A DNA stretch of 60,492 bases, counting the filler. It is 6 parts of 6 records of this genome, joined end to end, with 100 filler letters (N's around TTAATTAATTAA, not from the genome) between each part and the next. Parts side by side here need not be neighbours in the genome. Positions count along the whole stretch, not along the records: positions 35,403 to 42,397 come from DRR723986_18116; 5 more parts are not named here. The stretch is one strand, 5' to 3'. Shown here in pieces: positions 8,955 to 54,064 of the stretch. The position numbers were made by a program, and so were the translations under genes. The notes beneath the pieces were generated by a model. It did not search any database and had not been told where the DNA came from. It saw only the letters and a list, made by a program, of their open reading frames with translations. The number at the start of each line of letters is the position of its first letter. Position 1 is the stretch's first letter.

Positions 8955-10436
8955 ATGCACTTACCCGGTGAAGCACCTGATTTTGCGACTGAGCCAGCTT
9001 GGGAGCCATTGGTTCGCAAGCTGCCACATACCTGGACTCCCGAGTACTGCTTTCGCCGGCTCAGCAAGCATCCCGGGTGCGTGTGGCTCGATAGCTCGAT
9101 GCAGTCCGAGGCGCTCGGTCGCTATAGCTACATGGGCGTGCTGCCCAGCAGTACAGTCCGAGCGGATAACTTGGCGTCGCGCCCGCTCGAAATCATCAAA
9201 CGCTCCATTTCGGCTGCCAATACAAAACGAATCGTCGAGCTGCCTCCGATGCAAGGTGGCTGGATCGGTTGCCTGGGATACGAGTATGGGGCCGCTCTGG
9301 AGAGAATTCCCGTAGCAAAGACCAACGACTTTGATTTGCCGATCGCGCATTTTGGCTTCTACGACTGCATCCTATGCTGGGATCACACCTTGGGCCAAGG
9401 GTGGATTGTTTCCCAGGGCATGCCGGGCCGAAAAACGGAACGGCGAAGTGCAATTGCGTACCAACGTATGACGCAACTGCTTGCTATCCTGGACGCCCCA
9501 CCACCGGCTACCAGTGCAAGAACGAACCCCAGCAGCGAGCGCTTCGACGGCTACGACAAACGTTTGCCAGCCGATCGCTTGGCGCCTCAGTTCCCGACGC
9601 GCTGGTCGAATCGCTGGTCAAGCAACTTTTCGGCGTTGGACTACCGCCGAGCTGTGGCCCGTTGTGTCGAGTACATTCATGCTGGCGACATTTTTCAAAC
9701 CAACCTCTCCCAGCGTTTGCTTGGCCATGCAACTGCCACATCGCCAGAACTGTACTTGCACCTGAGGCAATGCAGCCCAGCACCATTTAGCGGATATGCT
9801 GACTTTGGTCGCACGCAGATTGTGAGCACTTCACCAGAGCGGTTTATTCGCCTGCAAGATGGCAAGATCGAGACGCGCCCGATCAAGGGCACACGTCCTC
9901 GGCTCAGTGACCCAACTGCGGACAGCGGGATGGCAGAGCTTCTTGCGGCCAGCCCGAAGGATCGCAGTGAAAACATCATGATCGTCGACCTTTTGCGAAA
10001 CGACATTTCACGCGTTGCGCAAGACGATTCGGTCAAGGTGCCTGCTCTGTGTGCAGTGGAGCGATATCCGTATGTTTGGCATTTGGTTAGTGTCATTGAA
10101 GCTGAGTTGGCCGCGGGCCGAGATGCAGCCGACCTGGTCCAAGCAACCTTCCCCGGAGGATCCATAACTGGCGCTCCCAAAATCCGCGCGATGGAGATTA
10201 TTGCGGAGCTTGAGCCGACCCAACGCGGCCCCTACTGCGGCAGTTTGGGCTATTTCAGCTTGACCGGAGATGTCGACTTCAACATCCTGATCCGTACACT
10301 CACTTCCTGCGGTGGTTGGTGGCAGGTGCCCGTCGGCGGTGGAATTGTGGCCACCAGCGATCCTCACCTGGAAGAACAAGAGACCTGGCACAAGGCAGAG
10401 GGAATCCTGCGAGCGATTGATCGAATGGAAAAATGA
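8955..10436 (+). CDS. pabB: Aminodeoxychorismate synthase component I
   Basis: GRYS, GDIFQTNLSQR, SPERF, PIKGT (Lys typical of PabB rather than TrpE PIAGT), ENIMIVDLLRND, FPGGSITGAPK. Confidence 0.88.
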   Translation: MHLPGEAPDFATEPAWEPLVRKLPHTWTPEYCFRRLSKHPGCVWLDSSMQSEALGRYSYMGVLPSSTVRADNLASRPLEIIKRSISAANTKRIVELPPMQGGWIGCLGYEYGAALERIPVAKTNDFDLPIAHFGFYDCILCWDHTLGQGWIVSQGMPGRKTERRSAIAYQRMTQLLAILDAPPPATSARTNPSSERFDGYDKRLPADRLAPQFPTRWSNRWSSNFSALDYRRAVARCVEYIHAGDIFQTNLSQRLLGHATATSPELYLHLRQCSPAPFSGYADFGRTQIVSTSPERFIRLQDGKIETRPIKGTRPRLSDPTADSGMAELLAASPKDRSENIMIVDLLRNDISRVAQDDSVKVPALCAVERYPYVWHLVSVIEAELAAGRDAADLVQATFPGGSITGAPKIRAMEIIAELEPTQRGPYCGSLGYFSLTGDVDFNILIRTLTSCGGWWQVPVGGGIVATSDPHLEEQETWHKAEGILRAIDRMEK

Positions 10437-10474
10437 CGCTGCTCGTAGCCTGATTACCGCATGAATACACTATC

Positions 10475-11278
10475 TTGCACCTACGCACTGGAAACAAGAC
10501 CTTGCTAACGCTAGTCGACAACTACGACAGCTTCCTGCACAACCTGGCCCGATACATTCGGCGTCTGGGTGTTGAAGTGGTCATCCTGCGTAATGACGAC
10601 ATAGGTTTAAGGGAGACGATCGCGAGGTCCTCTGCGGTGCTTTTTTCTCCAGGGCCATGCTCACCCAATGAAGCCGGGCAGTGCCTTGACTTAATTAGGG
10701 CATTTTCTGGCCAGGTGCCCATCTTAGGAGTGTGCCTTGGGCACCAAGCAATCTGCCAGGCCTTTGGTGCGAGCATTGTTCGCGCAAGGCAGCCGATGCA
10801 CGGAATGGTTTCAGAAATTGCGTTCAGTGACAGTCCGCTGTTCGCTGGGCTCAGTTCGCCGAGCGAATTCGCTCGATACCACTCGCTTATTTGTGATGAG
10901 TCCTCAATTCCCGACTGCCTCAAGGTTACGGCCCGCACACACACCGTGTCTGCAGGGACCGGCACGTCAGCGGAAGTCGGCGAGATCATGGCTGTTGAGC
11001 ACGCCGAGCATCCGACTTTTGGCGTTCAGTTTCACCCAGAGTCTGTGCTGTCGCGTTCGGGCTATCAAATCCTGGCCAACTTTCTATCCATCGCAGGATT
11101 GCAGCATGCTCCGCTGCCAGCAAATGACACCGACTCAGGTGAGCAACTGATGCGGGCAGAATCGGGACCAAACACAAGCTTGCAACCCGCAGGCGACGAA
11201 AACTACTACAGCAGCTTTGACACCGATTCACAGTGGCTGGACTACCCGCGGCCCGGATCCGCCCAAGAGGGTGACTAG
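10475..11278 (+). CDS. pabA: Glutamine amidotransferase component II (PabA/TrpG) with acidic C-terminal extension
   Basis: DNYDSF, SPGP, GVCLGHQ, RYHSL, GVQFHPES. Confidence 0.88.
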   Translation: MHLRTGNKTLLTLVDNYDSFLHNLARYIRRLGVEVVILRNDDIGLRETIARSSAVLFSPGPCSPNEAGQCLDLIRAFSGQVPILGVCLGHQAICQAFGASIVRARQPMHGMVSEIAFSDSPLFAGLSSPSEFARYHSLICDESSIPDCLKVTARTHTVSAGTGTSAEVGEIMAVEHAEHPTFGVQFHPESVLSRSGYQILANFLSIAGLQHAPLPANDTDSGEQLMRAESGPNTSLQPAGDENYYSSFDTDSQWLDYPRPGSAQEGD

Positions 11279-13256: not shown

Positions 13257-14057
13257 GTGAACCGAAGTCTCTTTTGTGCCGGATTATCGTTGTTCGTGTT
13301 TGCAGGAATGACCGCTGCGGTGAGTCCCGCGCCGCTGCTGGATTCCATCTTCGTCAGCCGGGCAATGGCCCAAGAGCCGCAAAGTGGTGGTAAAGAGACG
13401 CAACAAACGGGGGACGCCCGAACAGAATCTGGCCGAACAGATTCTGGCCGAACGAAGGGGCGTGATGCCCAGCGCCAGCCTGGTGAAAAGAGATTAAGTG
13501 ATGAAGAGGCCGTTTCTGGGCCGCAAGCTGGCGAGAAGCTTGGCAAGATTCCTGTCCAGATTGTCCCCCAAGGCAAGCCGGCAGACATCCTGAAGACTCC
13601 CAGCGAGAAGGCCGAACTACGGAGCAAACACAGCGAAGGCCCATTGCTGCTGATCTTCATGAATGAGAAGTCGCGTCCCGGATTCGCGCTCACCCGTTTG
13701 CTCAGTGAATACACCCATCGCCTTGGTAAAGAAAAAGCGCCACCGACCTACTTCATCATGCTCACCGAAGACGCCTCTGGCACAGACAAGTGGCTACGCG
13801 GCATCGCCAAGCACCTCAAGCCCAGCGTCCGACTTGCGGTTGCAGAAGGCGGAATCGAAGGCCCAGGGAGTCTTGGCCTCAATCGGTTGGTCGCGATGAC
13901 GGTACTCGTTTGTGACGACTCTAAAGTGGTCGACAATTATTCACTGGTGCAACCAAGCGCCCAAGTTGACGGTGCGAAGATGATCCAAAGCATCGCAAAA
14001 GTCGTTGGCGACGAAAAACCACCTCGCGTCCGACAGCTCATGCCGCGTGGCCGTTAA
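13257..14057 (+). CDS. Exported hypothetical protein (planctomycete type)
   Basis: Signal-peptide-like N-terminus (…AMAQE), low-complexity linker, SGPQAGEK motif then alpha/beta domain; start uncertain. Confidence 0.65.
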   Translation: MNRSLFCAGLSLFVFAGMTAAVSPAPLLDSIFVSRAMAQEPQSGGKETQQTGDARTESGRTDSGRTKGRDAQRQPGEKRLSDEEAVSGPQAGEKLGKIPVQIVPQGKPADILKTPSEKAELRSKHSEGPLLLIFMNEKSRPGFALTRLLSEYTHRLGKEKAPPTYFIMLTEDASGTDKWLRGIAKHLKPSVRLAVAEGGIEGPGSLGLNRLVAMTVLVCDDSKVVDNYSLVQPSAQVDGAKMIQSIAKVVGDEKPPRVRQLMPRGR

Positions 14058-14173
14058 AGCTCAGTTGCCTCACTCGCAGGTGACGCGTGATCAATCGCGA
14101 ACAGGACAGGAGGCCTCGCTTCCATAGTTACCGAGGCCACCAGCACCGAGGCTACCAGAGAGGAGCCCGTCGC

Positions 14174-16372
14174 ATGAAAGGCCTACTTAGAATTGCCTGG
14201 TCGATTGCTTGTGCGGTCGCATTCAACCAAAGCGCAGTCAGCCAAAGCGCGTTCGCTGACGGACCGCCGTCGAGGGCTGTGAACCGCGCAGTTGACTTCT
14301 CGCGTGATGTGATCCCCGTTTTGACACGGTTCGGCTGCAACTCAGGTGCATGCCATGGCGCATCCGCCGGGCGAGGTTACCTGAAGCTCAGCCTATTTGG
14401 CAGCCGTCCGCGAAGCGATTTTGAGGCGATCGCCCACTCGGCTGCCGGACGGATCTTGGATGTCGACACTCCCGAGCGAAGCCTGTTGCTTCAAAAGCCC
14501 AGTGGCCTGCTCGAGCATGGCGGCGAACAACGGTTTAACACTGACAGCCATGACTATCGCCTTCTGCGCGAATGGATTACTTCACTGCAGGAGCGAGCGC
14601 CGTCGAATCGCAAGAGATTTGAGTCCGTCGAGTCGATCCGATGTTCGACGGCGAATGTAATCGAGCTTACCATTGGCGAAACGACAGAGGTTGCGTTCGA
14701 AGCGACTTTCAAGACGGGCGACATTGAAACAAGCCAAGCCGTGGCACAGCCAAATCTGCTTGTCATCGAAGGAGCTGCGCCATCTGGCGGTGAGGAATCC
14801 CCAGTCACTTACGACGTCAAGCCAACCGCAATTCTGCTGACCGCTCACACCAGAGGCTATTGGCCGATAACGATACGTTACGCCGCAGCCGCAACCACTC
14901 TGCAGGTTTTCGTACGCGACGACAATGACTCGGCGACGCATGCGCAACGCCGTGCAGCGGTGACCGGCGGCAAGCACCAGAATCCAATCGACTCTGCGGT
15001 GCTGGCCGCTGCGGATCGAATTGGCGCGGTGCCAAGCATTGCTGGTTCTCCCCGTCAGCTCGCACGGCGACTCTGGGTAGACTTGTTGGGCCAACATCCA
15101 ACGCGACAGCAATGGAAGGAGGCCGAACGCAGGATTCGCACGGGTGATCTGGCGACGCTGGTTGATGGAATGCTGTCAGACGAACGATTCGCTCTCCGAG
15201 CATCTTCGGAGATTGCCGGTTGGACAGGCTTCGCTGGATCGCGGGAGGCCCTGGAAAGTGACATCGCCGGTTTCATCACCCAACGTGACGATCTTCGAGC
15301 GCTGGCTGCCCAAGTGTTGATCGTTGATGGCAGCTCTTCAGAACGAATCGACACCTTTCACCTTCTCGCTCGAGACGCACGCGCCCGCAGCGAATTGGTT
15401 GCATCGACATGGCTCGGAACGCGGATCGGTTGCGCCCAATGCCATGATCACCCCCTCGATCGTTGGACACAGGATGACTACTTTGGACTCGCTGCGTGCT
15501 GGGCGGAGTTGGAGATTGCTGGCGGTCGGCCCGTTCGAATCCCAGGAAAGAAGACAACCGATCTCCGGTTCGGGCGTCCTGCGCAGCCCAAACTGATCAG
15601 CGGTCAGCAACTCGATCCCGAGCAGCCTGCCGATCTACAGCTAACCAAGTGGGTCGTCGCCTCAGACAACGACCTGTTCGCAAACAACTTGTCGAATCGG
15701 ATTTGGCATTGGCTAATGGGAAGTGGCATTGTTGAAGACGTCGACGATTTTCGCGCGACCAATCCACCCATCAATCCCGAACTCCTAGAAACCTTGCGGC
15801 GTATCCTTCGCGAGAACAGCTTTTCGATGAAAGCCGTCGTTCGGGTAATTGTGCTAAGTGACGCGTATGCTTGCCGCACATCCGATGAAGGGAGCATTCT
15901 GGAGAACCGGCTCGCACTTCGCCGCACTGCCAAGCCGATCGAAATTCCGATCTACGAATTGATACAGCCCGTCTTCGGCATCACTGCAGATACGGAAATA
16001 TCGGCAACGCCCGGCGAGACGATGATGATGGTAGCGACCGATGGCTGTACGCGTGAAGGGGAATGTGCAGACCCGTTTGGAGAGAGTATTGCGTTGGTTA
16101 AAGACCAACGGCTGAACAGGCAAATCCATGACGGCATCTTGCGTCTGCGCGACGATCACCAGGGTGCACCAACAGAGCAAGTGGTTTCAGTATTGCATGA
16201 GAGGTTCTTCGGCATGCCGATCACTGACGAGAAGCTTCGGCAGTTGTCCACCGTCGTGGGTGAGCGCGAATTGCAGATGCCAGTTTCCGATCACCGGTTA
16301 CTCGAAGGGCGTGTACTTGAAGATATCGCTTGGCAGTGGGCGGTCAGTAGAGAATTCCGATTATTGCACTAA
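14174..16372 (+). CDS. DUF1549/DUF1553 (PSD1) planctomycete cytochrome-like protein
   Basis: FSRDVIPVLTRFGCNSGACHG, NPID, RRLWVDLLG, CAQCHDHP..WTQDDY, RIWHWLMGSGIV..VDD...NPPINPELL. Confidence 0.85.
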   Translation: MKGLLRIAWSIACAVAFNQSAVSQSAFADGPPSRAVNRAVDFSRDVIPVLTRFGCNSGACHGASAGRGYLKLSLFGSRPRSDFEAIAHSAAGRILDVDTPERSLLLQKPSGLLEHGGEQRFNTDSHDYRLLREWITSLQERAPSNRKRFESVESIRCSTANVIELTIGETTEVAFEATFKTGDIETSQAVAQPNLLVIEGAAPSGGEESPVTYDVKPTAILLTAHTRGYWPITIRYAAAATTLQVFVRDDNDSATHAQRRAAVTGGKHQNPIDSAVLAAADRIGAVPSIAGSPRQLARRLWVDLLGQHPTRQQWKEAERRIRTGDLATLVDGMLSDERFALRASSEIAGWTGFAGSREALESDIAGFITQRDDLRALAAQVLIVDGSSSERIDTFHLLARDARARSELVASTWLGTRIGCAQCHDHPLDRWTQDDYFGLAACWAELEIAGGRPVRIPGKKTTDLRFGRPAQPKLISGQQLDPEQPADLQLTKWVVASDNDLFANNLSNRIWHWLMGSGIVEDVDDFRATNPPINPELLETLRRILRENSFSMKAVVRVIVLSDAYACRTSDEGSILENRLALRRTAKPIEIPIYELIQPVFGITADTEISATPGETMMMVATDGCTREGECADPFGESIALVKDQRLNRQIHDGILRLRDDHQGAPTEQVVSVLHERFFGMPITDEKLRQLSTVVGERELQMPVSDHRLLEGRVLEDIAWQWAVSREFRLLH

Positions 16373-16576: not shown

Positions 16577-16676
16577 NNNNNNNNNNNNNNNNNNNNNNNN
16601 NNNNNNNNNNNNNNNNNNNNTTAATTAATTAANNNNNNNNNNNNNNNNNNNNNNNNNNNNNNNNNNNNNNNNNNNN
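16577..16676. other. Assembly spacer (contig join)
   Basis: N44-TTAATTAATTAA-N44. Confidence 0.99.
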
Positions 16677-21977: not shown

Positions 21978-22077
21978 NNNNNNNNNNNNNNNNNNNNNNN
22001 NNNNNNNNNNNNNNNNNNNNNTTAATTAATTAANNNNNNNNNNNNNNNNNNNNNNNNNNNNNNNNNNNNNNNNNNNN
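21978..22077. other. Assembly spacer (contig join)
   Basis: N run with TTAATTAATTAA linker. Confidence 0.99.
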
Positions 22078-35302: not shown

Positions 35303-35402
35303 NNNNNNNNNNNNNNNNNNNNNNNNNNNNNNNNNNNNNNNNNNNNTTAATTAATTAANNNNNNNNNNNNNNNNNNNNNNNNNNNNNNNNNNNNNNNNNN
35401 NN
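35303..35402. other. Assembly spacer (contig join)
   Basis: N run with TTAATTAATTAA linker. Confidence 0.99.
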
Positions 35403-35829
35403 ATGAGCAGGTTTCCAGTGGGTCGATACACGTTTTCGAACGGTGAAACACGCGCTCCTGGCCCCAGGTAGCCGCGCCCTTGATCCACCGGTTCTGACTG
35501 CTTCGACCGGACCATGAATGTGCCGTGTTCCACCGGATTTTGCCCATGAAGACAGCGCTGGCAACACGCTGCATACATCACGGAAGTCGCATCGGGATCG
35601 GCGCAGACACGCGGCGTTGCGGCGACCATTTTTGGCCAACGGGTTCAGGTTGGCTACTGCTGCCGGCTCACAGCTGCCTGTGGTCAGGCGTCTGATCGCT
35701 GCGGCGCGGCTTCCCCGAAGCAGCCCTTCGCGCATTACGCAGCATTTCCACCTCCCAGATGACCACAATGCGGGACGGTGCGGACGTTCTCCTTACGCCG
35801 CTCCCCGCATTGTGCCACCCGGGATCCGG

Positions 35830-36180
35830 CTACCCCCTTTCCTCGATGATCTCGGTCTGCTTGCCCACGAGGATCAGCGTGGTCTCATGGTCGAGAAACG
35901 TCTTTTCGTCCGGAAAGACCTTTTGCTTGTAGGTCTCCGAGCCGAGCACCGCCTGCATGCCTTCGGGACTGTCGAACCAGATCTCGGCGGTGCCGTCGAA
36001 ATCGGCCTGCGGCACCGGGAAGTCGCCATCGGCCGGGTGGGTCTGGATGTAGCGCAGCACATGGGTCCGGGCTTCCGGAATCGAGCGGAAGAGCGGTCCG
36101 TGCGTCTCGCGGTGGTGCCGCACGAAAGCGGCGTGGTCTATTTCGGGATTGCGCTTGAGCAGCATGGTCATCTTGATCAT
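35830..36180 (-). CDS. EthD family protein
   Basis: IK..LLKR.....F..HHRETHGPL, RYIQ, FDGTAEIWFDS, DEKTFLD. Confidence 0.85.
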   Translation of the reverse strand: MIKMTMLLKRNPEIDHAAFVRHHRETHGPLFRSIPEARTHVLRYIQTHPADGDFPVPQADFDGTAEIWFDSPEGMQAVLGSETYKQKVFPDEKTFLDHETTLILVGKQTEIIEERG

Positions 36181-36192
36181 TGCGTCGATCCT

Positions 36193-37014
36193 TCAGGGAT
36201 GAGGCGTCCAGCGGGGCGCCGTGGTGTCTTCGGGCAGGTCGATGCCGCCGGGATAGGTCAAGAGCTCGAACAACGTGCCCCAAGGGGCGCGGCCGTAGAT
36301 GCCCGCGTTGCCGTCCTTGTCCTCGTTGTTGGCGAGCGGGTGGGGGCCCTTCAGCAAGCTGCCCCCGGCGGCGGTGAAGGCGGCGCAGGCCGCTTCGATG
36401 TCGTCGACGTAGAGGGCGAGGTGCGTAAGCCCCAGATCCTGAAGGCAGGCGGGGTCGGCCTGCGCCCCGTCCTCCATTCGGAAAAGCTCGAGGCACGGCC
36501 CGTTGCCGATCCGCACGAGGCGCATGTGGGTGATCCGCGTGCCCGGCGAAAGGCCGAGCTCCGCCTCCGGGCCTTCGCCTTCCATGTCGGGACCGTCCTC
36601 GGGAAGGACGTCGTAAAGCGTGACGGCTCCGAAAGCCTCGGAAAGGAAACGGGTCGCAGCATCGATGTCGGGCACCGTGAGGCCCGCGTGATCGATCCCC
36701 CGAATGCCGGAGGCCGAGGCCTTTTCGTCGGCGAAGCTGGCGAGGTCGGTCACGCGCGATGCGCCTCCGGTCGCGACCTCCTTTAGCGCCGCGTTGAACT
36801 CTTGGGTGTGGGGCTGGGCGAGATGTGCCTCGAAGGCCGCGTCGTCGCGGTATTCCTCGAGCATCACCACTGCACCGCCGTCTTCCGTAAAGGCCTCGAA
36901 GCGAATGTTGCCGGCCTCGCGGCGCACCCGCCGGGCCAGCGTCTCGACCAGCGCTTCGAGCGTCTCGGCTTGCCCTGCCTTCGGCGTGGCCCTTGCGATC
37001 ATACTGCGTGTCAT
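36193..37014 (-). CDS. ABM (cofactor-free monooxygenase-like) - VOC/glyoxalase fusion protein
   Basis: N-half RREAGN..EEYRDDAAFEAHLAQPH (ABM); C-half IDHAGLTVPD..LELF..HLALYVDD..PWGTLFEL (VOC); GGAG RBS. Confidence 0.8.
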   Translation of the reverse strand: MTRSMIARATPKAGQAETLEALVETLARRVRREAGNIRFEAFTEDGGAVVMLEEYRDDAAFEAHLAQPHTQEFNAALKEVATGGASRVTDLASFADEKASASGIRGIDHAGLTVPDIDAATRFLSEAFGAVTLYDVLPEDGPDMEGEGPEAELGLSPGTRITHMRLVRIGNGPCLELFRMEDGAQADPACLQDLGLTHLALYVDDIEAACAAFTAAGGSLLKGPHPLANNEDKDGNAGIYGRAPWGTLFELLTYPGGIDLPEDTTAPRWTPHP

Positions 37015-37160
37015 GGTTGTCTCCGTCTTGGAATGCCGCGCTGCGGCAGTCTTGGAGGGAAACGGACCTGAAGCAGGGATGTTCCGGCGGGCTCTGGAAT
37101 GGCTGGAGGATCCGGCTATATTTTTCCAAAACTTCAATCATGTGGAAAATTCATCCGCCA

Positions 37161-37877
37161 ATGATCCAGTCGATCACCCGCGCCCTCGAGATTCTCGATG
37201 CCATCGCCCATGCGGGCGGTGCCGCGCCGCTTGGAGAGATCGCCGCAGGAACGGGCCTGAAGACGACAACCGCTCACAATATCCTCAGGACCCTTCAGGA
37301 CGCCGGGTACATCCGCCGCCGCCCCCGCGACATGCGCTATCACCTGGGCGACCGCATCCTGAACCTTGCCCGCGTGGTGGGCGATGACGATGCCCTGCGC
37401 CGCCGCTTGCGTCCTGCGCTCGAGGAGATGGCGGCCCGCACCTCCGAGACGGTCTTCCTCGCCGTGCCCTCCGGTGACGAAGTGTATTTTCTCGACGCGA
37501 TCGAGTGTCCGCGGACGCTGCGTGCCTCGAGCCAGCGCGGCGAGCGCCTCCCGATGGCGGGTTCGGCCATCGGTCTTCTCTTCCTCGCGTTCCTCCCGGC
37601 CCTGCGCCGCCGAATGTTCGAGGTCCACGCGGATCGCATCGGTCCCGGAATCGGAGCGGAGATCGATGCCATCGCCGCCCGCGGCTACGCGCTCGACCGC
37701 GAGAACTGGTCTCCCGGCCTCAATTGCGTCGCCGTCCCTTGGCGCGACGATGGGGAAGTGCGGGCGGGCTTCGGTCTCGCCGGTCCGAGCAGCCGCCTGA
37801 CCGCCGCGCGCCTGAACGAGATGGCGCTGATCATGCGCGAGCTCGCCTCGGGCGCGGTTGGTGTCAGTCAGGACTGA
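37161..37877 (+). CDS. IclR family transcriptional regulator
   Basis: QSITRALEIL HTH, TTAHNILRTL, ETVFL, SAIG, GYALD..GLNCVAVP. Confidence 0.92.
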   Translation: MIQSITRALEILDAIAHAGGAAPLGEIAAGTGLKTTTAHNILRTLQDAGYIRRRPRDMRYHLGDRILNLARVVGDDDALRRRLRPALEEMAARTSETVFLAVPSGDEVYFLDAIECPRTLRASSQRGERLPMAGSAIGLLFLAFLPALRRRMFEVHADRIGPGIGAEIDAIAARGYALDRENWSPGLNCVAVPWRDDGEVRAGFGLAGPSSRLTAARLNEMALIMRELASGAVGVSQD

Positions 37878-38181
37878 AGATGCGGCTTTCCGCAGAGGGG
37901 ATCGGGGCGGACTTGCGGCGCTGCGGCACGCGGGTCTTGACCCTGCAGGGCAGGGGGCGCGCCACCAGACGACCGCTCCCAGCCCAAAACTGCCATTCGT
38001 TCCCACACGTTGCAGAATTTCCGTAGAGTGGTTGCGTTTGAGGCCGTTCTCTAAAATATACACGCGTCGCTGATTTTCAGTTTCACGCAGCCGACCGACG
38101 CATGTTGCATTGGTTAATTCACGTGGGCATTGTCGTCGCGGTGTGCAAACCGCATGCGCTGCCCTTGATCCTAGGTAAAAT

Positions 38182-39633
38182 ATGTTCCGTTTCCAGCGCG
38201 CAAAGACCGCAGCAGATTTCGAACCGTCGACTGATGTATTCCCGACAATTTCCTCTCAGGACATTGCCAAGAATACGCGTCTGAAGAAGCGCGGACGCGA
38301 CGATGGTGCCAAAGACTACCCATCTGCCGATGCCACCGCCCTGTCTTCTGCGGAGCAGGAAGCGATCAATGAATTGACGAGGCGCCGCAAGCGCGGGATC
38401 GACCAGTTCGACCTGCACTACGATGCCTATCAGGGGCGGATCGAGCTTATACAGGGGGCGCTGTCGAAACTCGACAAGTTGGTGGGCGAGCTGCTCAATG
38501 AAATGCAGGCCATGGGCCGGGTCCAGAATGGGACCGCGACGACGTTGCGACGCGCCGTTGCCGACCACCACGCAGGCCTTGAGGCCTATCGCAATCGACA
38601 CAAGTTGGTGGGGGCGCCGAAAGAGGCGCAATCGCTTTGGACCGTGGCCTTCCTGATCTTCCTGTTCTTTGCGGTCGAGATCATCCTTGGCGCCTTGTTC
38701 TTTCAGGAACAAAGCCCGGGAGGTCTGGTTGGAAGCGCGACCTACGCGGTGATGATCTCGCTGGTGAACGTGGCGATCAGCGGGACCCTTGGACATTTCA
38801 GTCGCTATGGCGCGTTGCGCGGCTTTTGGAACAAGGTACTTGGGATAACGTGCTGGCTGCTGTTTTTCGCATTTGCCTTGGCCTTCAACCTGTTCGTCGG
38901 CCACTACCGACGCGCGACGGACGAGATGCCATGGGAGGAGGCTGCCTATGCGATGTTCGACAGCTTTACGCGTGCGCCTTTCGATCTCGGAAGCTTCAAC
39001 GCCTTCCTGATCGCAGCCTTTGGCGTCGTCGTGTCCATCTTTGCCTTCCTGAAGATCCGGGGATGGGAGGACGTTCACCCGGGGTTCAATCGCCTCTACG
39101 ACACGTTGAACGATGCAATCGATGATTACGCCGAAGCCTTCGAGGAAACCCAAGACAAGCTGAAGGACCTGTTCAACGAGTCCAGCCGAGAGATCATGGC
39201 GGAAGCCCATAGCCTGCGCGCTGCTTTGAGAGGCTCGGTCCATGCCCACGCGGGGCAGACGACCCTGGTCACCAACCTGCGCGGCTTTCTGGTCGAATGT
39301 GAACAGTGCGCGAAGACCTTGATCACCACGTACCGTGAGGAAAACGAGAAGGCCCGCAAGGCGCCAAGACCAAAGTATTTCTCGGATTCTTTCACGTTCG
39401 ACGACGCCCCGCATCGGGAGGTCGCCCCCTTCGACGAAAGCAAGATCGAGCCCGAGGTGAAGCGCATCGAAGAGGAGGCCCGCGACGGTGTGGCCAAGAT
39501 CCTCAAGGCCCGGGAAGAGCAGCTCGAGGCGCTTCCTGCACCGTCTGAACTGTTGGGTGAGCGCCAGCCTGAGAAAACTGACACGACCTCTCGTGAGGGC
39601 CGCCTGAAGGTGGTGAACGGCGGAGCCGACTGA
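38182..39633 (+). CDS. Uncharacterised multi-pass membrane protein with flanking coiled coils (gene 1 of 4-gene operon)
   Basis: 483-aa ORF, about 4 central TM helices, helical N- and C-terminal regions; TGATG overlap with next gene. Confidence 0.8.
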   Translation: MFRFQRAKTAADFEPSTDVFPTISSQDIAKNTRLKKRGRDDGAKDYPSADATALSSAEQEAINELTRRRKRGIDQFDLHYDAYQGRIELIQGALSKLDKLVGELLNEMQAMGRVQNGTATTLRRAVADHHAGLEAYRNRHKLVGAPKEAQSLWTVAFLIFLFFAVEIILGALFFQEQSPGGLVGSATYAVMISLVNVAISGTLGHFSRYGALRGFWNKVLGITCWLLFFAFALAFNLFVGHYRRATDEMPWEEAAYAMFDSFTRAPFDLGSFNAFLIAAFGVVVSIFAFLKIRGWEDVHPGFNRLYDTLNDAIDDYAEAFEETQDKLKDLFNESSREIMAEAHSLRAALRGSVHAHAGQTTLVTNLRGFLVECEQCAKTLITTYREENEKARKAPRPKYFSDSFTFDDAPHREVAPFDESKIEPEVKRIEEEARDGVAKILKAREEQLEALPAPSELLGERQPEKTDTTSREGRLKVVNGGAD

Positions 39634-40439
39634 TGGCGAAACGCAAGAGAAGAAGGCGGGGTACAAATCCCCTCGCACCCATCGCGGCTGTCCTGGGGAT
39701 CGGCCTCGTCGCGGCTGCCATGGCGGGAACCTATTACTTTGCCTATCAGGACACGCAAAAGCCGGCGGTCAGCGCAGTTGACCTATGCCCGGTGGACGGA
39801 CATGAGCCCCACCTCGCGATCCTCGTGGATACGACAGATCCGATGACGCTGACGCAGCTGGAACTGGCCCGGCAGCATATCGAGGACAAGATCGACGATG
39901 CCGTCGTCGAGACCCGGATCAGCTTTGCAACGGTCGACCCGGATGGATCGATCCGCCAGGACAGCTTCTTCAGCATGTGCAAGCCAGAGGCGGGCGCCGA
40001 CGTCAGCGTCCTGACGCAAAACCCCCGGCTTGTCCAAGAGCGCTTCCAGTCGGAGTTCGCAGAGCCGATACAGACGGCCTTGGATCAGCTGTTGCGGGTT
40101 CCGCAAGCCGCCTCATCGCCGATCATGGAGGCGACACAGGAACTTGCAGCCCGGATTCCGGGATTCGCGGTGTCCGATGCGCCCCGTGAACTGCTGATCA
40201 TGAGCGACCTGGTGCAGCACTCCGACGTGTTCTCGTTCATCCGCGGCAACGACTGGCAGAGCTTCGTCGAGTCGGGTGGGCCGACGCGCTTTGGCAGCAC
40301 CTACAAGGGGGCGACGGTATCTGTTCTGCGGGTACCACGGATGCCCGACAGAGCGGCGGCCATCGACGATTTTTGGGTTCGATATTTCGATGCTCAGGGT
40401 TTTGACAGGGTGCGCGTCACCCAATTGGGGGACCTGTAA
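39633..40439 (+). CDS. Membrane-anchored vWA-like protein (gene 2)
   Basis: Basic N-terminus plus one TM; AILVDTTD / SPIMEA / LLIMSDL resemble the three vWA MIDAS segments. Confidence 0.7.
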   Translation: MAKRKRRRRGTNPLAPIAAVLGIGLVAAAMAGTYYFAYQDTQKPAVSAVDLCPVDGHEPHLAILVDTTDPMTLTQLELARQHIEDKIDDAVVETRISFATVDPDGSIRQDSFFSMCKPEAGADVSVLTQNPRLVQERFQSEFAEPIQTALDQLLRVPQAASSPIMEATQELAARIPGFAVSDAPRELLIMSDLVQHSDVFSFIRGNDWQSFVESGGPTRFGSTYKGATVSVLRVPRMPDRAAAIDDFWVRYFDAQGFDRVRVTQLGDL

Positions 40440-41917
40440 TGGCCGACGCAAGGAAGCATGGCCACCGAGAGAGTGTCGACACGACATTGCTGATCCTGGC
40501 GTTCATCCTGGGCATCGGGTCGGCCGTCGCGTTGAAGGCCTTCGGGTTCCCGCCGTGGGTGCCGGCCGTCGTCACGGGGAGTGTCATCATCGGGTACGCC
40601 CTGCTCACCTACTTCCCGGACTCGGCGCGGCTCGAGCCCGAACAGATCGGCGACAACTGCTATTACCTCGGATTTTGCATCACGCTGGCGTCCTTGGCAT
40701 ACACGCTCTACGGCCTCAGCGCCGCTGGCAACGACTCCGAGATGTTGGGCGACGTGATCTCGGGCTTCGGCGTGGCTTTGTCGTCTACGGTGGTGGGGGT
40801 CATGACCCGCGTGGTGCTCTTGCAGTACCGCGTCGATCTCGCCGCCCGGGACAAGCAGGCACGGTTGGAGATCAACAAGGCCATGCTCGACTTCAAGGGG
40901 GTCATGAGCACCTCGGTGGTCAACACCAGAGAGACGATCACGGCCATCCGGCAATCCCTCGATGAACACACCACCGAGACGATCAAGCAGAACGAGCGGA
41001 TGCAGAAGGCTTTCGATGACCGTCTCGAGGCGCTTGTCGCGAATGTCGGCAGCGGCGTGCAGGATGTGATGAACGAGGTTCTCGAAAACGGCAAGGACAT
41101 GAACCGGCGCATCGCCGCGAGTTCACGTGCCAACACAGGCTCGATCGAAACTGCATTGAAGAGTTCGATGGAGCTGGTGGCTGCCGACCTGAAGCGCGCG
41201 TCCGAGAAATTGAAGAATGAAATGGAGCTAGCAAACGCAAGCTCCATCAAGGCGCTGGAGCGGGTCGTAGGCGAAGTGTCGGGCGCGATGAAGATGTTGA
41301 GCGACGAGGCCACGAAATCCATCAATGCGGCCCGGGCTGCCCAGGACGAGCAGATGTCGCAATCGATTAAAGCCGTTGCGACAAATGTCCTTGAGGTGGC
41401 AGGTCAGATCGACACTCAGAAGGACAAACTCCGAGAGGCAATCGAAGAATACACCAAGCAAACAAACCTGGCGCGAGGAGAGCTTTCCGCGCTTGTGAAG
41501 GACAGCAACGCCGCGAGGCAGGAGGTCGCCGAGGCAGCCCGAACCGTTGCCATGGCTGCCGCCAAGGCCGCCATATCTGCGGAGCAGGTGGAGAAGGCGG
41601 TATCCCGATCCGTCACCGAGCTTTCTCGGACCCAGCCACGCACCACTCCGCCGGCTACACCCGTGCCTGCGTCGGACCAATCCTCCATAAGGGTTGAAGC
41701 CGTATCGCCAGTCGACGCACCTGTCGCACAGGTGTCGAACAGCCCTGATACGGATGCCAGGACCGCCGCCGAGACACCAACTGGAGCGAGCGGTCAGCCA
41801 TTTTCCTCGAATTCGGAAGGAGCGGCAAAGGCCACCGGTGAGGTCGCGGCTGCGAACCCGCCGGTGAACAAGCCCGGGTCTGGTCTTTGGTCCTTTACAG
41901 GTGCGGGCCGGAAATGA
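40439..41917 (+). CDS. MotA/ExbB/ZorA-like membrane protein with long helical tail (gene 3)
   Basis: 4 TM; YYLGFCITLASL and GFGVALSSTVVG resemble MotA-family channel helices; long coiled-coil then P/A/S-rich tail. Confidence 0.7.
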   Translation: MADARKHGHRESVDTTLLILAFILGIGSAVALKAFGFPPWVPAVVTGSVIIGYALLTYFPDSARLEPEQIGDNCYYLGFCITLASLAYTLYGLSAAGNDSEMLGDVISGFGVALSSTVVGVMTRVVLLQYRVDLAARDKQARLEINKAMLDFKGVMSTSVVNTRETITAIRQSLDEHTTETIKQNERMQKAFDDRLEALVANVGSGVQDVMNEVLENGKDMNRRIAASSRANTGSIETALKSSMELVAADLKRASEKLKNEMELANASSIKALERVVGEVSGAMKMLSDEATKSINAARAAQDEQMSQSIKAVATNVLEVAGQIDTQKDKLREAIEEYTKQTNLARGELSALVKDSNAARQEVAEAARTVAMAAAKAAISAEQVEKAVSRSVTELSRTQPRTTPPATPVPASDQSSIRVEAVSPVDAPVAQVSNSPDTDARTAAETPTGASGQPFSSNSEGAAKATGEVAAANPPVNKPGSGLWSFTGAGRK

Positions 41918-42397
41918 CCGATCAACTCGAGGAATATCGGCAACAGGCCAGTTATCGGCGTGGCACCGTAATGGGTCTTACCGCAGCGGAGGCATTCATG
42001 CTGATTGCCTTCATTCTCTTGACCTTGCTGGTGCTCTGGCGTGTGACGGCCAACGCGGAGAAGGCGCAACTGATCGAAGAGAACACGAGGCTTATCGCGG
42101 CGCTGGACGGGCTGGACGACCCGGCAGCCTTGGCTGCTGCTCTCGTGATACAACGCCGTTTTGCAGGGCTGGATGAGGAGGCTGTGGAGGAAAGCCTTGC
42201 CCTGATGGAGGACGACAAGCTAAAGACCTTGGCTCTTGAGGCGAAAGCCCTTCCGAACGAGGGTTTGCTCGAGCTTACGGACCTGACTCGGGACGGGGCT
42301 TTCCCCGGCGCCCGCGAGAAGCTGGCGCTGTTCGACAAGGTCAGCCTTGGCCCAGACGAAATTGCAGATCTGCTGGATCAACTCACCTTGGCCAAGG
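41914..42397 (+). CDS. MotB/ZorB-like single-pass protein, 3' truncated (gene 4)
   Basis: ATGA overlap with gene 3; single TM GLTAAEAFMLIAFILLTLL with acidic residue at its start; C-terminus lost in gap. Confidence 0.55.
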
Positions 42398-42497
42398 NNN
42401 NNNNNNNNNNNNNNNNNNNNNNNNNNNNNNNNNNNNNNNNNTTAATTAATTAANNNNNNNNNNNNNNNNNNNNNNNNNNNNNNNNNNNNNNNNNNNN
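42398..42497. other. Assembly spacer (contig join)
   Basis: N run with TTAATTAATTAA linker. Confidence 0.99.
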
Positions 42498-53964: not shown

Positions 53965-54064
53965 NNNNNNNNNNNNNNNNNNNNNNNNNNNNNNNNNNNN
54001 NNNNNNNNTTAATTAATTAANNNNNNNNNNNNNNNNNNNNNNNNNNNNNNNNNNNNNNNNNNNN
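53965..54064. other. Assembly spacer (contig join)
   Basis: N run with TTAATTAATTAA linker. Confidence 0.99.

Follow-up and report, generated by a model that had tools for sequence, protein, structure and literature searches.

The cassette and its relatives

We analysed a 60,492-nucleotide stretch of DNA, filler included, in which contigs of one genome are joined end to end (the window), and describe here a cassette of four genes, g1 to g4, that occupies the 3′ part of one of these contigs (35403-42397, 6,995 bases). The original prediction, made from the letters of the sequence, had proposed four co-oriented, translationally coupled genes of a Zorya-related membrane system at this place. All four overlapping open reading frames (ORFs) do lie on the plus strand at the positions first read, and the three coupling junctions are exact (TGATG at 39631, TAATG at 40437 and ATGA at 41914). 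We lean towards reading the cassette as an undescribed Zorya-related envelope system that would combine a MotAB-type ion-driven motor with a periplasmic nuclease as effector. Its genes, and the leader that precedes them, are the following:

38081..38181, plus strand: upstream leader that travels with the cassette, starting at the 5′ limit of DNA similarity to L001, the closest related locus
38182..39633, plus strand: g1, 483 amino acids (aa), an orphan inner-membrane protein with four transmembrane (TM) helices
39633..40439, plus strand: g2, 268 aa, one TM helix and a periplasmic domain assigned to the vWA fold
40439..41917, plus strand: g3, 492 aa, a putative divergent subunit of the MotA/ExbB/TolQ superfamily
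41914..42397, plus strand: g4, 5′ part only (161 of about 540 codons), a ZorB/MotB-like subunit

In this window g4 ends after residue 161 because the contig stops there, with an N spacer from 42398 onwards. Scans with Pfam, NCBIfam and PADLOC named none of the four window proteins and returned only sub-threshold or compositional matches; no Pfam model reached threshold for g1, g2 or g3, and g1, g2 and g4 had zero PADLOC matches at E≤1. Because the first reading had left room for a match to a named system, we note that neither g1 and g2 nor the system as a whole is named by any model of PADLOC, Pfam or NCBIfam. A scan of 37700-42397 found no sigma-70-like promoter, and terminator-like sites in the same interval did not exceed the level of shuffled sequence, with none inside the cassette beyond chance.

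Relatives of g3 number 74 in a collection of 5.8 billion proteins, and nearly all of them are unnamed. Related loci were taken from two species genomes (L001 in a Methylocystaceae metagenome-assembled genome (MAG) and L002 in a Roseovarius MAG) and from metagenome contigs, of which the best 80 of 216 matches were used; merging of near-identical loci left 69 non-redundant ones. Among these, g2 stands directly upstream of g3 in all 55 loci with room for it, and g1 stands upstream in all 36 with room. By tblastn g4 was found downstream of g3 in 34 of 41 loci; in six of the seven misses an ORF starting with the g4 signature YRRGxxLGLTxAE follows g3 directly, and in the seventh, L065, no ORF with that signature follows. 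The order g1-g2-g3-g4 is thus kept in related loci that reach far enough, with L065 as the exception for g4. When 2,637 ORFs from loci L001-L082 were all compared with one another, no further gene family proved common to at least four loci besides g1-g4, a nuclease described below and antisense shadows.

When the window contig was compared with L001 by blastn, 38081-41601 aligned at 86.4% and 41911-42397 at 83.2% identity, with no match upstream. Similarity therefore begins 101 base pairs (bp) 5′ of g1, and the flanks are unlike, with EthD, ABM/glyoxalase and IclR genes in the window and an HTH_3 gene in L001. This limit of similarity together with the different flanks suggests that the cassette moves as a unit, which agrees with the earlier description of the region as an accessory fragment.

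Relationship of g3 and g4 to motor subunits

It had been predicted that g3 carries four TM helices with MotA/ExbB-like channel motifs, followed by a long helical tail. Hydropathy and an AlphaFold model both bear on this topology and agree with it:

g3 residues 17-128: TM region, four TM helices (hydropathy and AlphaFold model)

Three segments exceed the hydropathy threshold and the fourth, less hydrophobic helix lies at 67-95. The model (mean predicted local distance difference test score 69.6, with 80-94 across the TM part) places helices at 2-34, 40-58, 67-95, 99-224 and 233-395, followed by a disordered end at 395-492. The cytoplasmic helical tail accordingly spans ∼265 residues before a Pro/Ala/Ser-rich disordered stretch, and tail length is variable among g3 homologues of 332-560 aa. 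The C-terminal stretch itself (window 41600-41914, residues about 395-492) is rich in Pro, Ala, Ser and Thr and is unconserved with L001 even in DNA, and many g3 homologues end with a short conserved basic motif (hydrophobic-x-x-F/L-x-x-R-S/K-R/K).

In an alignment of 40 g3 homologues, the conserved positions cluster in two helices, LEPExIGDNCYYLGFxxTLxSLAYTLY and VISGFGVALSSTxVGVxxRV, which form a conserved hairpin (GDNCYYLGFxxTL ... ISGFGVALSSTxVG). Residues G78, T82, F110, G111, A113, L114, S116, T117 and G120 are invariant in all 40 sequences, and the two motifs that were singled out at first reading are the most conserved part of the family. We compared a profile of the N-terminal 165 residues of g3 with ten MotA_ExbB proteins from genomes G001 and G002 using hhalign. 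The score was 36.4 (probability 64%, E 6.4e-5) with the match confined to the last two TM helices, as compared with at most 21.9 for 40 column shuffles, 18.8 for the reversed alignment, and 18.2, 17.0 and 13.6 for g1, g2 and g4, respectively. In this alignment g3 68-149 is paired with positions 149-228 of a TolQ-like protein, GDNCYYLGFxFTL falling on the family motif xxAPxLGLxGTV and GFGVALSSTIVG on GIxxALxTTxxG. The Pfam MotA_ExbB model also matches 26 of the 40 family members at E≤1, all below threshold (best E 9.2e-5), with the L002 homologue reaching 20 bits where the curated cut-off of PF01618 is 22.9. A Foldseek search with the g3 model ranked TolQ chains at the top, short of E 1e-3. The MotA/ExbB relationship proposed for g3 is thus supported by the profile score against its controls and by the sub-threshold Pfam matches, and TolQ is also where the structural ranking points.

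The same TolQ/ExbB reference set scores 41.9 against ZorA1 and 43.5 against ZorA2, so on this scale g3 appears to be about as far from TolQ/ExbB as ZorA is. Membership of g3 in the ZorA family itself was rejected by sequence: hhalign gave 12.8 with the N-terminal regions of nine type I ZorA proteins and 27.2 with eight type II ZorA proteins, whereas ZorA1 and ZorA2 score 86.8 with each other. From these profile comparisons we consider g3 a separate branch of the MotA/ExbB/TolQ superfamily with a ZorA-like architecture. The remaining matches of g3 concern its tail. PADLOC and NCBIfam ZorA models match weakly and only there, alongside LmuB and JetC, and because these matches are confined to the helical tail and co-occur we regard them as compositional coiled-coil noise. 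The other Pfam matches with many members in the g3 family are helical or coiled-coil only (Apolipoprotein 32, Baculo_PEP_C 22, ApoLp-III 21), and apolipoprotein and designed-bundle matches from a PDB profile search were likewise dismissed as noise from the helical tail. We also observed that the type I ZorA model matches the N-terminal ∼230 residues of many ORFs of 900-2,865 aa, in 45 of 301 genomes, which indicates that fusion of a MotA-like domain to a giant tail or another domain is common and that most such proteins are uncharacterised.

The fragment of g4 in the window contains an N-terminal YRRGxxMGLTAAE motif, a single TM helix (22-40) that includes Glu26, and the start of a periplasmic helical linker. 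The single-pass topology with an acidic residue at the start of the TM helix, near its cytoplasmic end, as first predicted, is a family trait: Glu26 is invariant in 31 sequences and present in seven more divergent copies, and all g4 homologues share the N-terminal motif YRRGxxxGLTxAE. Full-length homologues have 305-726 aa. The linker after the TM helix is helical and very variable in length among 31 homologues; in L042, L055 and L071 it contains internal tandem repeats, and its length differs several-fold between lineages. A repeat-bearing linker of variable length would fit a spacer tuned to the distance of the cell wall.

The original prediction expected a peptidoglycan-binding domain in full-length g4 homologues. 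Although the window copy itself is cut, Pfam OmpA matches 29 of 31 g4 homologues (best E 7.8e-8; the L001 copy reaches 23 bits against a cut-off of 27.2). A search of all PDB sequences with the g4 family profile gave its best match, at E 1.3e-31, to 8vvi_A, a type II ZorB from Sulfuricurvum kujiense; MotS (1.1e-14), MotB (3.9e-13), PomB (1e-8) and OmpA-type domains followed at a wide distance. The g4 family and type II ZorB share the unusual motif GH(A/T)SSxW...AYxxNxxLSQxR. In the L001 homologue, which is 86% identical over the window fragment, the part missing from the window consists of a ZorB(II)-like OmpA-type domain and a staphylococcal-type nuclease (SNase) domain. By sequence comparison g4 is a clear ZorB relative, and it provides the strongest specific link of the cassette to Zorya.

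The likeness to type II Zorya therefore has two parts in these subunits: a periplasmic B-subunit domain closest to the solved type II ZorB, with the GH(A/T)SSxW...NxxLSQxR signature in both, and an A subunit with a compact TM domain and a long helical cytoplasmic tail. The cassette differs from type II in the low g3 score against ZorA2, in two N-terminal TM helices of g3 where ZorA2 apparently has one, as read from the sequences, and in the Glu that replaces Asp in g4. It differs from type I (ZorABCD, with the E. coli ZorA5B2 motor) more strongly still, since g3 has no sequence similarity to type I ZorA, ZorC and ZorD are absent, and the g3 tail of ∼265 residues compares with ∼500 in E. coli ZorA. 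With TolQR and ExbBD it shares the best profile match of g3, the top Foldseek ranks, and a single-pass protein with a periplasmic domain beside the motor (g2), as in TolA and TonB. Against this, g3 combines four TM helices with a long tail, g4 carries an OmpA-type domain instead of the TolR/ExbD fold, and g2 has no TolA/TonB C-terminal domain, long linker or conserved TM His.

We considered whether the proteins might not form a motor at all, g3 being a helical membrane scaffold and g4 a wall-anchored nuclease holder, with the MotA/ExbB resemblance convergent or too weak to signify. This would agree with the Pfam MotA_ExbB matches, all of which fall below the curated cut-off, and with the Glu of g4 in place of Asp. 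However, the profile match coincides exactly with the two channel helices and scores well above its controls, g4 is an unambiguous ZorB relative, and g4 follows g3 immediately with overlapping stop and start codons. Furthermore, solved motors have channels lined by Thr and Ser residues, and these are invariant in g3. In E. coli ZorAB, according to PMC11946911, ZorB Asp26 contacts ZorA Thr147 and Ser184, and the invariant T82, S116 and T117 of g3 lie in the helices that match those of Thr147 and Ser184. Absence of a motor thus appears decidedly unlikely, and by analogy with ZorAB we would expect Glu26 of g4 to face the invariant Thr and Ser residues of g3. A complex prediction with four g3 (1-150) and two g4 (1-70) chains, a ratio other than the natural 5:2 and with alignments unused, reached 0.22 against a mark of 0.34.

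The nuclease and the two conserved membrane partners

It had been suggested that effectors might lie beyond the contig end, which truncates g4. Homologous loci support this suggestion and place the missing effector either in the C-terminus of g4 or in a neighbouring gene. Many full-length g4 homologues, that of L001 included, carry a nuclease domain C-terminal to the ZorB-like domain: Pfam SNase matches 5 of 31 homologues (best 8.3e-16) as well as seven neighbouring ORFs, and Pfam GmrSD_C/HNH matches 3 of 31 (best 5.4e-14). With family-specific hidden Markov models on six-frame translations, and Pfam on neighbours, we found a nuclease fused to g4 or nearby in 25 of the 32 non-redundant loci with a complete g4. 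In 14 of these 25 it is fused, in L028 and L055 g4 is split or disrupted with the nuclease in the distal piece, and in the remaining nuclease-bearing loci the gene is separate and no more than a few hundred bases away, on one side of the cassette or the other. The most divergent clade adds an SNase nearby in six further loci (L054, L056, L060, L062, L064 and L070). As to the two disrupted copies, g4 in L028 (9119-10626) is present as two overlapping ORFs (9119-9751 and 9748-10626), probably through a frameshift, and the second piece contains OmpA and HNH; g4 in L055 (9349-14502) is apparently broken by ∼3 kb containing a DNA methylase-HNH gene and an IS1595 transposase, with the OmpA/SNase part at 13717-14502.

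Between the SNase family profile and S. aureus nuclease the match has E 5.3e-16, and the residues aligned with D19, D21, R35, E43 and R87 do not vary among 18 sequences; for these positions, and for D40, we assume the customary S. aureus numbering. Each of the six stand-alone SNases inspected has a signal peptide or TM anchor at its start, the fused nuclease domains follow a periplasmic domain, and conserved Cys residues occur in g2 and in the SNase domain. These features indicate that the nuclease is extracytoplasmic. Type II Zorya likewise has a nuclease effector, and ZorE is described as an HNH nickase (PMC11890865). The nuclease of the cassette differs in its location: it is joined to the B subunit at its periplasmic end or encoded next to it, and it carries export signals, instead of being a cytosolic protein that the tail recruits.

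The first predictions for g2 included a vWA-like fold, and a fold search does place it there. The protein has an Arg-rich N-terminus, one TM helix (14-32) after seven Lys/Arg residues and a periplasmic domain at about 54-268 with two invariant Cys residues, C52 and C116. A canonical metal ion-dependent adhesion site (MIDAS) reads DxSxS ... T ... D. In g2 the site is non-canonical (D66-x-T68-D69-P, S162-P-I-x-E166, S191-D192); the first motif, D66-x-T68-D69-P70, has Pro at the third position and fails the canonical pattern, while S162 and D192 are conserved. The Pfam VWA model matched none of 36 g2 members, the g2 profile had zero matches to PDB sequences, and the ESM Atlas gave only a lead at rank 29 (0.84). 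The identity of g2 was thus obtained from the fold search only, and on this basis we assign the protein to the vWA fold.

Tethered vWA proteins beside tolQ(R)-like genes have been described as 'force transducers' (Mol Biol Evol 2025, PMC12204202), and g2 resembles those proteins in being a TM-tethered periplasmic vWA protein beside a gene of the MotA/TolQ motor family. In that article one family of transducers has a TolA/TonB-like helix with an SHLS motif and a ∼100-residue linker, and a second has a TolR-like helix with a conserved Asp and no separate B subunit. In g2, by contrast, the TM segment is variable, without SHLS or any conserved His or Asp, the linker is short, and g4 supplies a separate B subunit; moreover, nucleases are mentioned zero times in that article.

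The first gene product, g1, has four TM helices (155-292) between N- and C-terminal helical regions, with an invariant Glu166 in the first TM helix and the conserved motifs GLLGG, NLxVAHFRDA, DPYPGY and YRDANRxAR..PAP among 32 homologues. Its helical ends, which are predicted to be cytoplasmic, are probably coiled coil, as read from the alignment and from noise matches to coiled-coil and helical proteins. No Pfam family was found in the 32 members and no PADLOC or NCBIfam family; searches of the PDB returned coiled-coil noise only, and the ESM Atlas unnamed clusters only. Comparison of g1 with g3, MotA/ExbB and ZorA gave no similarity (hhalign 16-21), and the idea that g1 and g2 constitute a second A/B motor pair is for this reason unsupported. 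Both proteins had been described as resembling none of the Zorya partners ZorC/D, ZorE or ZorF/G. This description stands, as neither has a PADLOC match at E≤1 and no extra gene family is shared among the loci. The cassette hence differs from all Zorya types in beginning with two conserved membrane proteins that have no Zorya counterpart. The proposed relation to Zorya as a whole is supported, within limits: g4 is ZorB-like and g3 has the tail of an A subunit, but g3 is not ZorA by sequence and the Zorya partner genes are absent. None of the outcomes that had been named in advance as contradicting the original prediction was observed.

Genomic context and proposed function

The g2 profile retrieved 3,389 representatives at 50% identity from 1.84 billion proteins, 2,376 of them at E≤1e-10, and in an even sample of 401 genomes across the phylum of G001, 13 contain g2. 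It was also found on 24 plasmid records (Rhizobium 12, Paracoccus 6, Sinorhizobium 3, Microvirga 2 and Tistrella 1), 11 of which are typed conjugative, and in none of 50,697 phage records. Among these plasmids is pRL11 of Rhizobium johnstonii 3841, on which RefSeq annotates the cassette as three hypothetical proteins and an 'OmpA family protein', with a convergent 'thermonuclease family protein' alongside.

We then scanned up to three ORFs on each side of the cassette in 27 longer loci (138 proteins). PADLOC defence matches lie within three ORFs in nine of the 27 loci and include ThsB, Dsr1 (directly upstream), a PDC-S41 protein with a ZacB-like protein, a CBASS-type phospholipase with WYL, McrBC-type proteins, type II and type III methyltransferases, a type IV restriction-like helicase and DEDDh. 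Mobile-element genes lie within the same distance in nine loci, and defence or mobile neighbours together occur in 15. These counts have no baseline and are only suggestive of a conflict setting, and the surroundings of the cassette in the window are ordinary. Other neighbours attracted attention individually. A gene for a PBP1A-type penicillin-binding protein lies just upstream in two unrelated loci, L118 (R. johnstonii 3841 pRL11, 285192-290347) and L028 (3493-4881), in the latter accompanied by an alpha-2-macroglobulin MG10 fragment; this proximity may be fortuitous or may point to surveillance of the wall. In L117 (Paracoccus aminovorans plasmid IV) the cassette adjoins a VgrG gene of type VI secretion, and in L004 (7022-12367) a gene for a 1,782-aa RHS/PT-HINT toxin. 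In the window itself the contig boundaries and the genes upstream of the cassette are as follows:

16577-16676, 21978-22077, 35303-35402, 42398-42497 and 53965-54064: N spacers, each 44 N + 12 bases + 44 N
35830-37877: ordinary upstream genes on the cassette contig, encoding an EthD-domain protein, an ABM monooxygenase/glyoxalase fusion and an IclR-type regulator

At least six contigs are therefore chained in the window, and neighbouring stretches are not necessarily adjacent in the genome.

Plasmid carriage raises the question of whether the same parts might serve as a weapon of mobile elements, for plasmid or island entry exclusion or against competitors, by destroying conjugated or transformed DNA in the periplasm. 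The conjugative plasmids would fit such a role, as would the relaxase, resolvase, Prim-Pol/DUF3987, DUF3631 and transposase genes that adjoin the cassette, its position beside a thermonuclease gene on conjugative pRL11, and the lack of g2 in phage records. Yet many loci adjoin anti-phage genes (Dsr1, ThsB, the CBASS-type effector and McrBC) and the closest solved relative of g4 comes from an anti-phage system. In addition, the plasmid address says little because the large rhizobial and Paracoccus replicons are chromid-like. We therefore consider such a weapon unlikely.

A housekeeping or nutritional role, in which a motor-anchored nuclease would scavenge phosphorus or nucleotides or take up DNA with g1 and g2 as structural partners, seems to us similarly improbable. 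SNase-type enzymes are typically secreted, Ca-dependent DNases, which suits such a machine, and so do the export signals on all stand-alone SNases inspected. Members of the family are frequent in marine and soil Pseudomonadota, metabolic genes surround the copy in the window, and the PBP1A-type gene is upstream in two loci. Nevertheless, the distribution over the phylum is patchy, the flanks differ between close relatives, and mobile or defence genes neighbour more loci than not in the scan above. The type of nuclease is also swapped between lineages, SNase in some and GmrSD_C/HNH in others, as is usual for effectors of conflict systems.

Several observations weigh against a Zorya-related envelope system with a periplasmic nuclease, the reading that we favor. 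On the side of the motor, no single line of evidence proves the MotA-type identity of g3: the window protein has no Pfam MotA_ExbB match at E≤1, no match reached E 1e-3 among the 350,542 chains searched by Foldseek, in which TolQ chains came first, the L002 homologue stays below the curated cut-off, and g3 fails as a member of the ZorA family. The g4 carboxylate is Glu and not the Asp of ZorB and MotB; type II ZorB reads SDLM at this place, and the Zorya paper calls the ZorB Asp universally conserved. Wall binding by g4 of the window clade is not assured, because its OmpA motif is GHASS and not GHTD. On the side of the effector, the nuclease was not found in seven of the 32 loci (L012, L013, L024, L032, L043, L044 and L068), the first three of which have <1 kb of contig past g4, and in the window clade the Ca-ligand position D40 of SNase is His. 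A periplasmic nuclease moreover cannot reach cytoplasmic DNA, which leaves the long cytoplasmic tail without an explained role. As for context, g2 is absent from the phage records, 12 of the 27 scanned loci have only ordinary or unknown neighbours, the window copy likewise stands in metabolic surroundings rather than a defence island, and the defence-neighbour counts have the limit given above.

Weighing these points, we think that the cassette is probably an undescribed bacterial defence system, and on balance we hold to the Zorya-related envelope system with its MotAB-type motor and periplasmic nuclease. In such a system, by analogy with solved motors, g3 would be the channel-forming A subunit, a pentamer whose long tail projects into the cytoplasm. 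Inside this ring g4 would be the B subunit, with Glu26 as the ion-binding carboxylate and its periplasmic ZorB-like domain binding peptidoglycan. The nuclease would sit at the tip of g4, as SNase in the window lineage and GmrSD_C/HNH in others, or be supplied elsewhere as a separate secreted or TM-anchored SNase. The tethered vWA domain of g2 is most likely a sensing or docking module and g1 a candidate partner of the g3 tail, and tail and g1 together may serve in gating or signal relay. Disturbance of the envelope by an invader would lead the peptidoglycan-binding domain to engage the wall and ion flow to open, as has been proposed for ZorAB, and the tethered nuclease could then cut foreign DNA exposed in the periplasm ahead of its entry into the cytoplasm.

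Destruction of DNA in the periplasm has a precedent in T4 superinfection exclusion, where mis-injected phage DNA is degraded by the periplasmic endonuclease I. That case differs in relying on a housekeeping nuclease and the phage-encoded Imm and Sp and not on a dedicated, motor-tethered nuclease. In the main text of the literature searched we found no account of these genes as a set, of Zorya systems of a fourth type or of a periplasmic nuclease tethered to a motor, nor did we find the pairing of a membrane-tethered vWA protein with a MotAB-type motor and a nuclease. We tentatively raise the possibility, to which we give clearly less credence than to the system outlined above, that the cassette represents a new class of periplasmic immunity, in which a ZorAB-like motor with a vWA sensor would carry a nuclease on a long arm and cut transiting DNA upon a breach of the envelope, while the tail and g1 gate or report the event.

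To our knowledge Zorya is the only defence system with a rotary ion motor. The cassette would then be a second motor-based defence candidate and a large natural variant of the Zorya design, and it presents a new domain pairing of a membrane-tethered vWA protein, a MotAB-type motor and a nuclease. Since the effector is fused to the periplasmic end of the motor, coupling between motor and effector becomes directly testable, and Rhizobium johnstonii 3841, which has the system on plasmid pRL11, offers a tractable host. If the cassette does represent a new class of periplasmic immunity, it would be the first dedicated defence system with an effector outside the cytoplasm, as well as a second, independent immune use of the 5:2 motor. 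If the nuclease does act in the periplasm, bacterial innate immunity would extend to a new compartment, with mis-injected or transiting DNA as its target.

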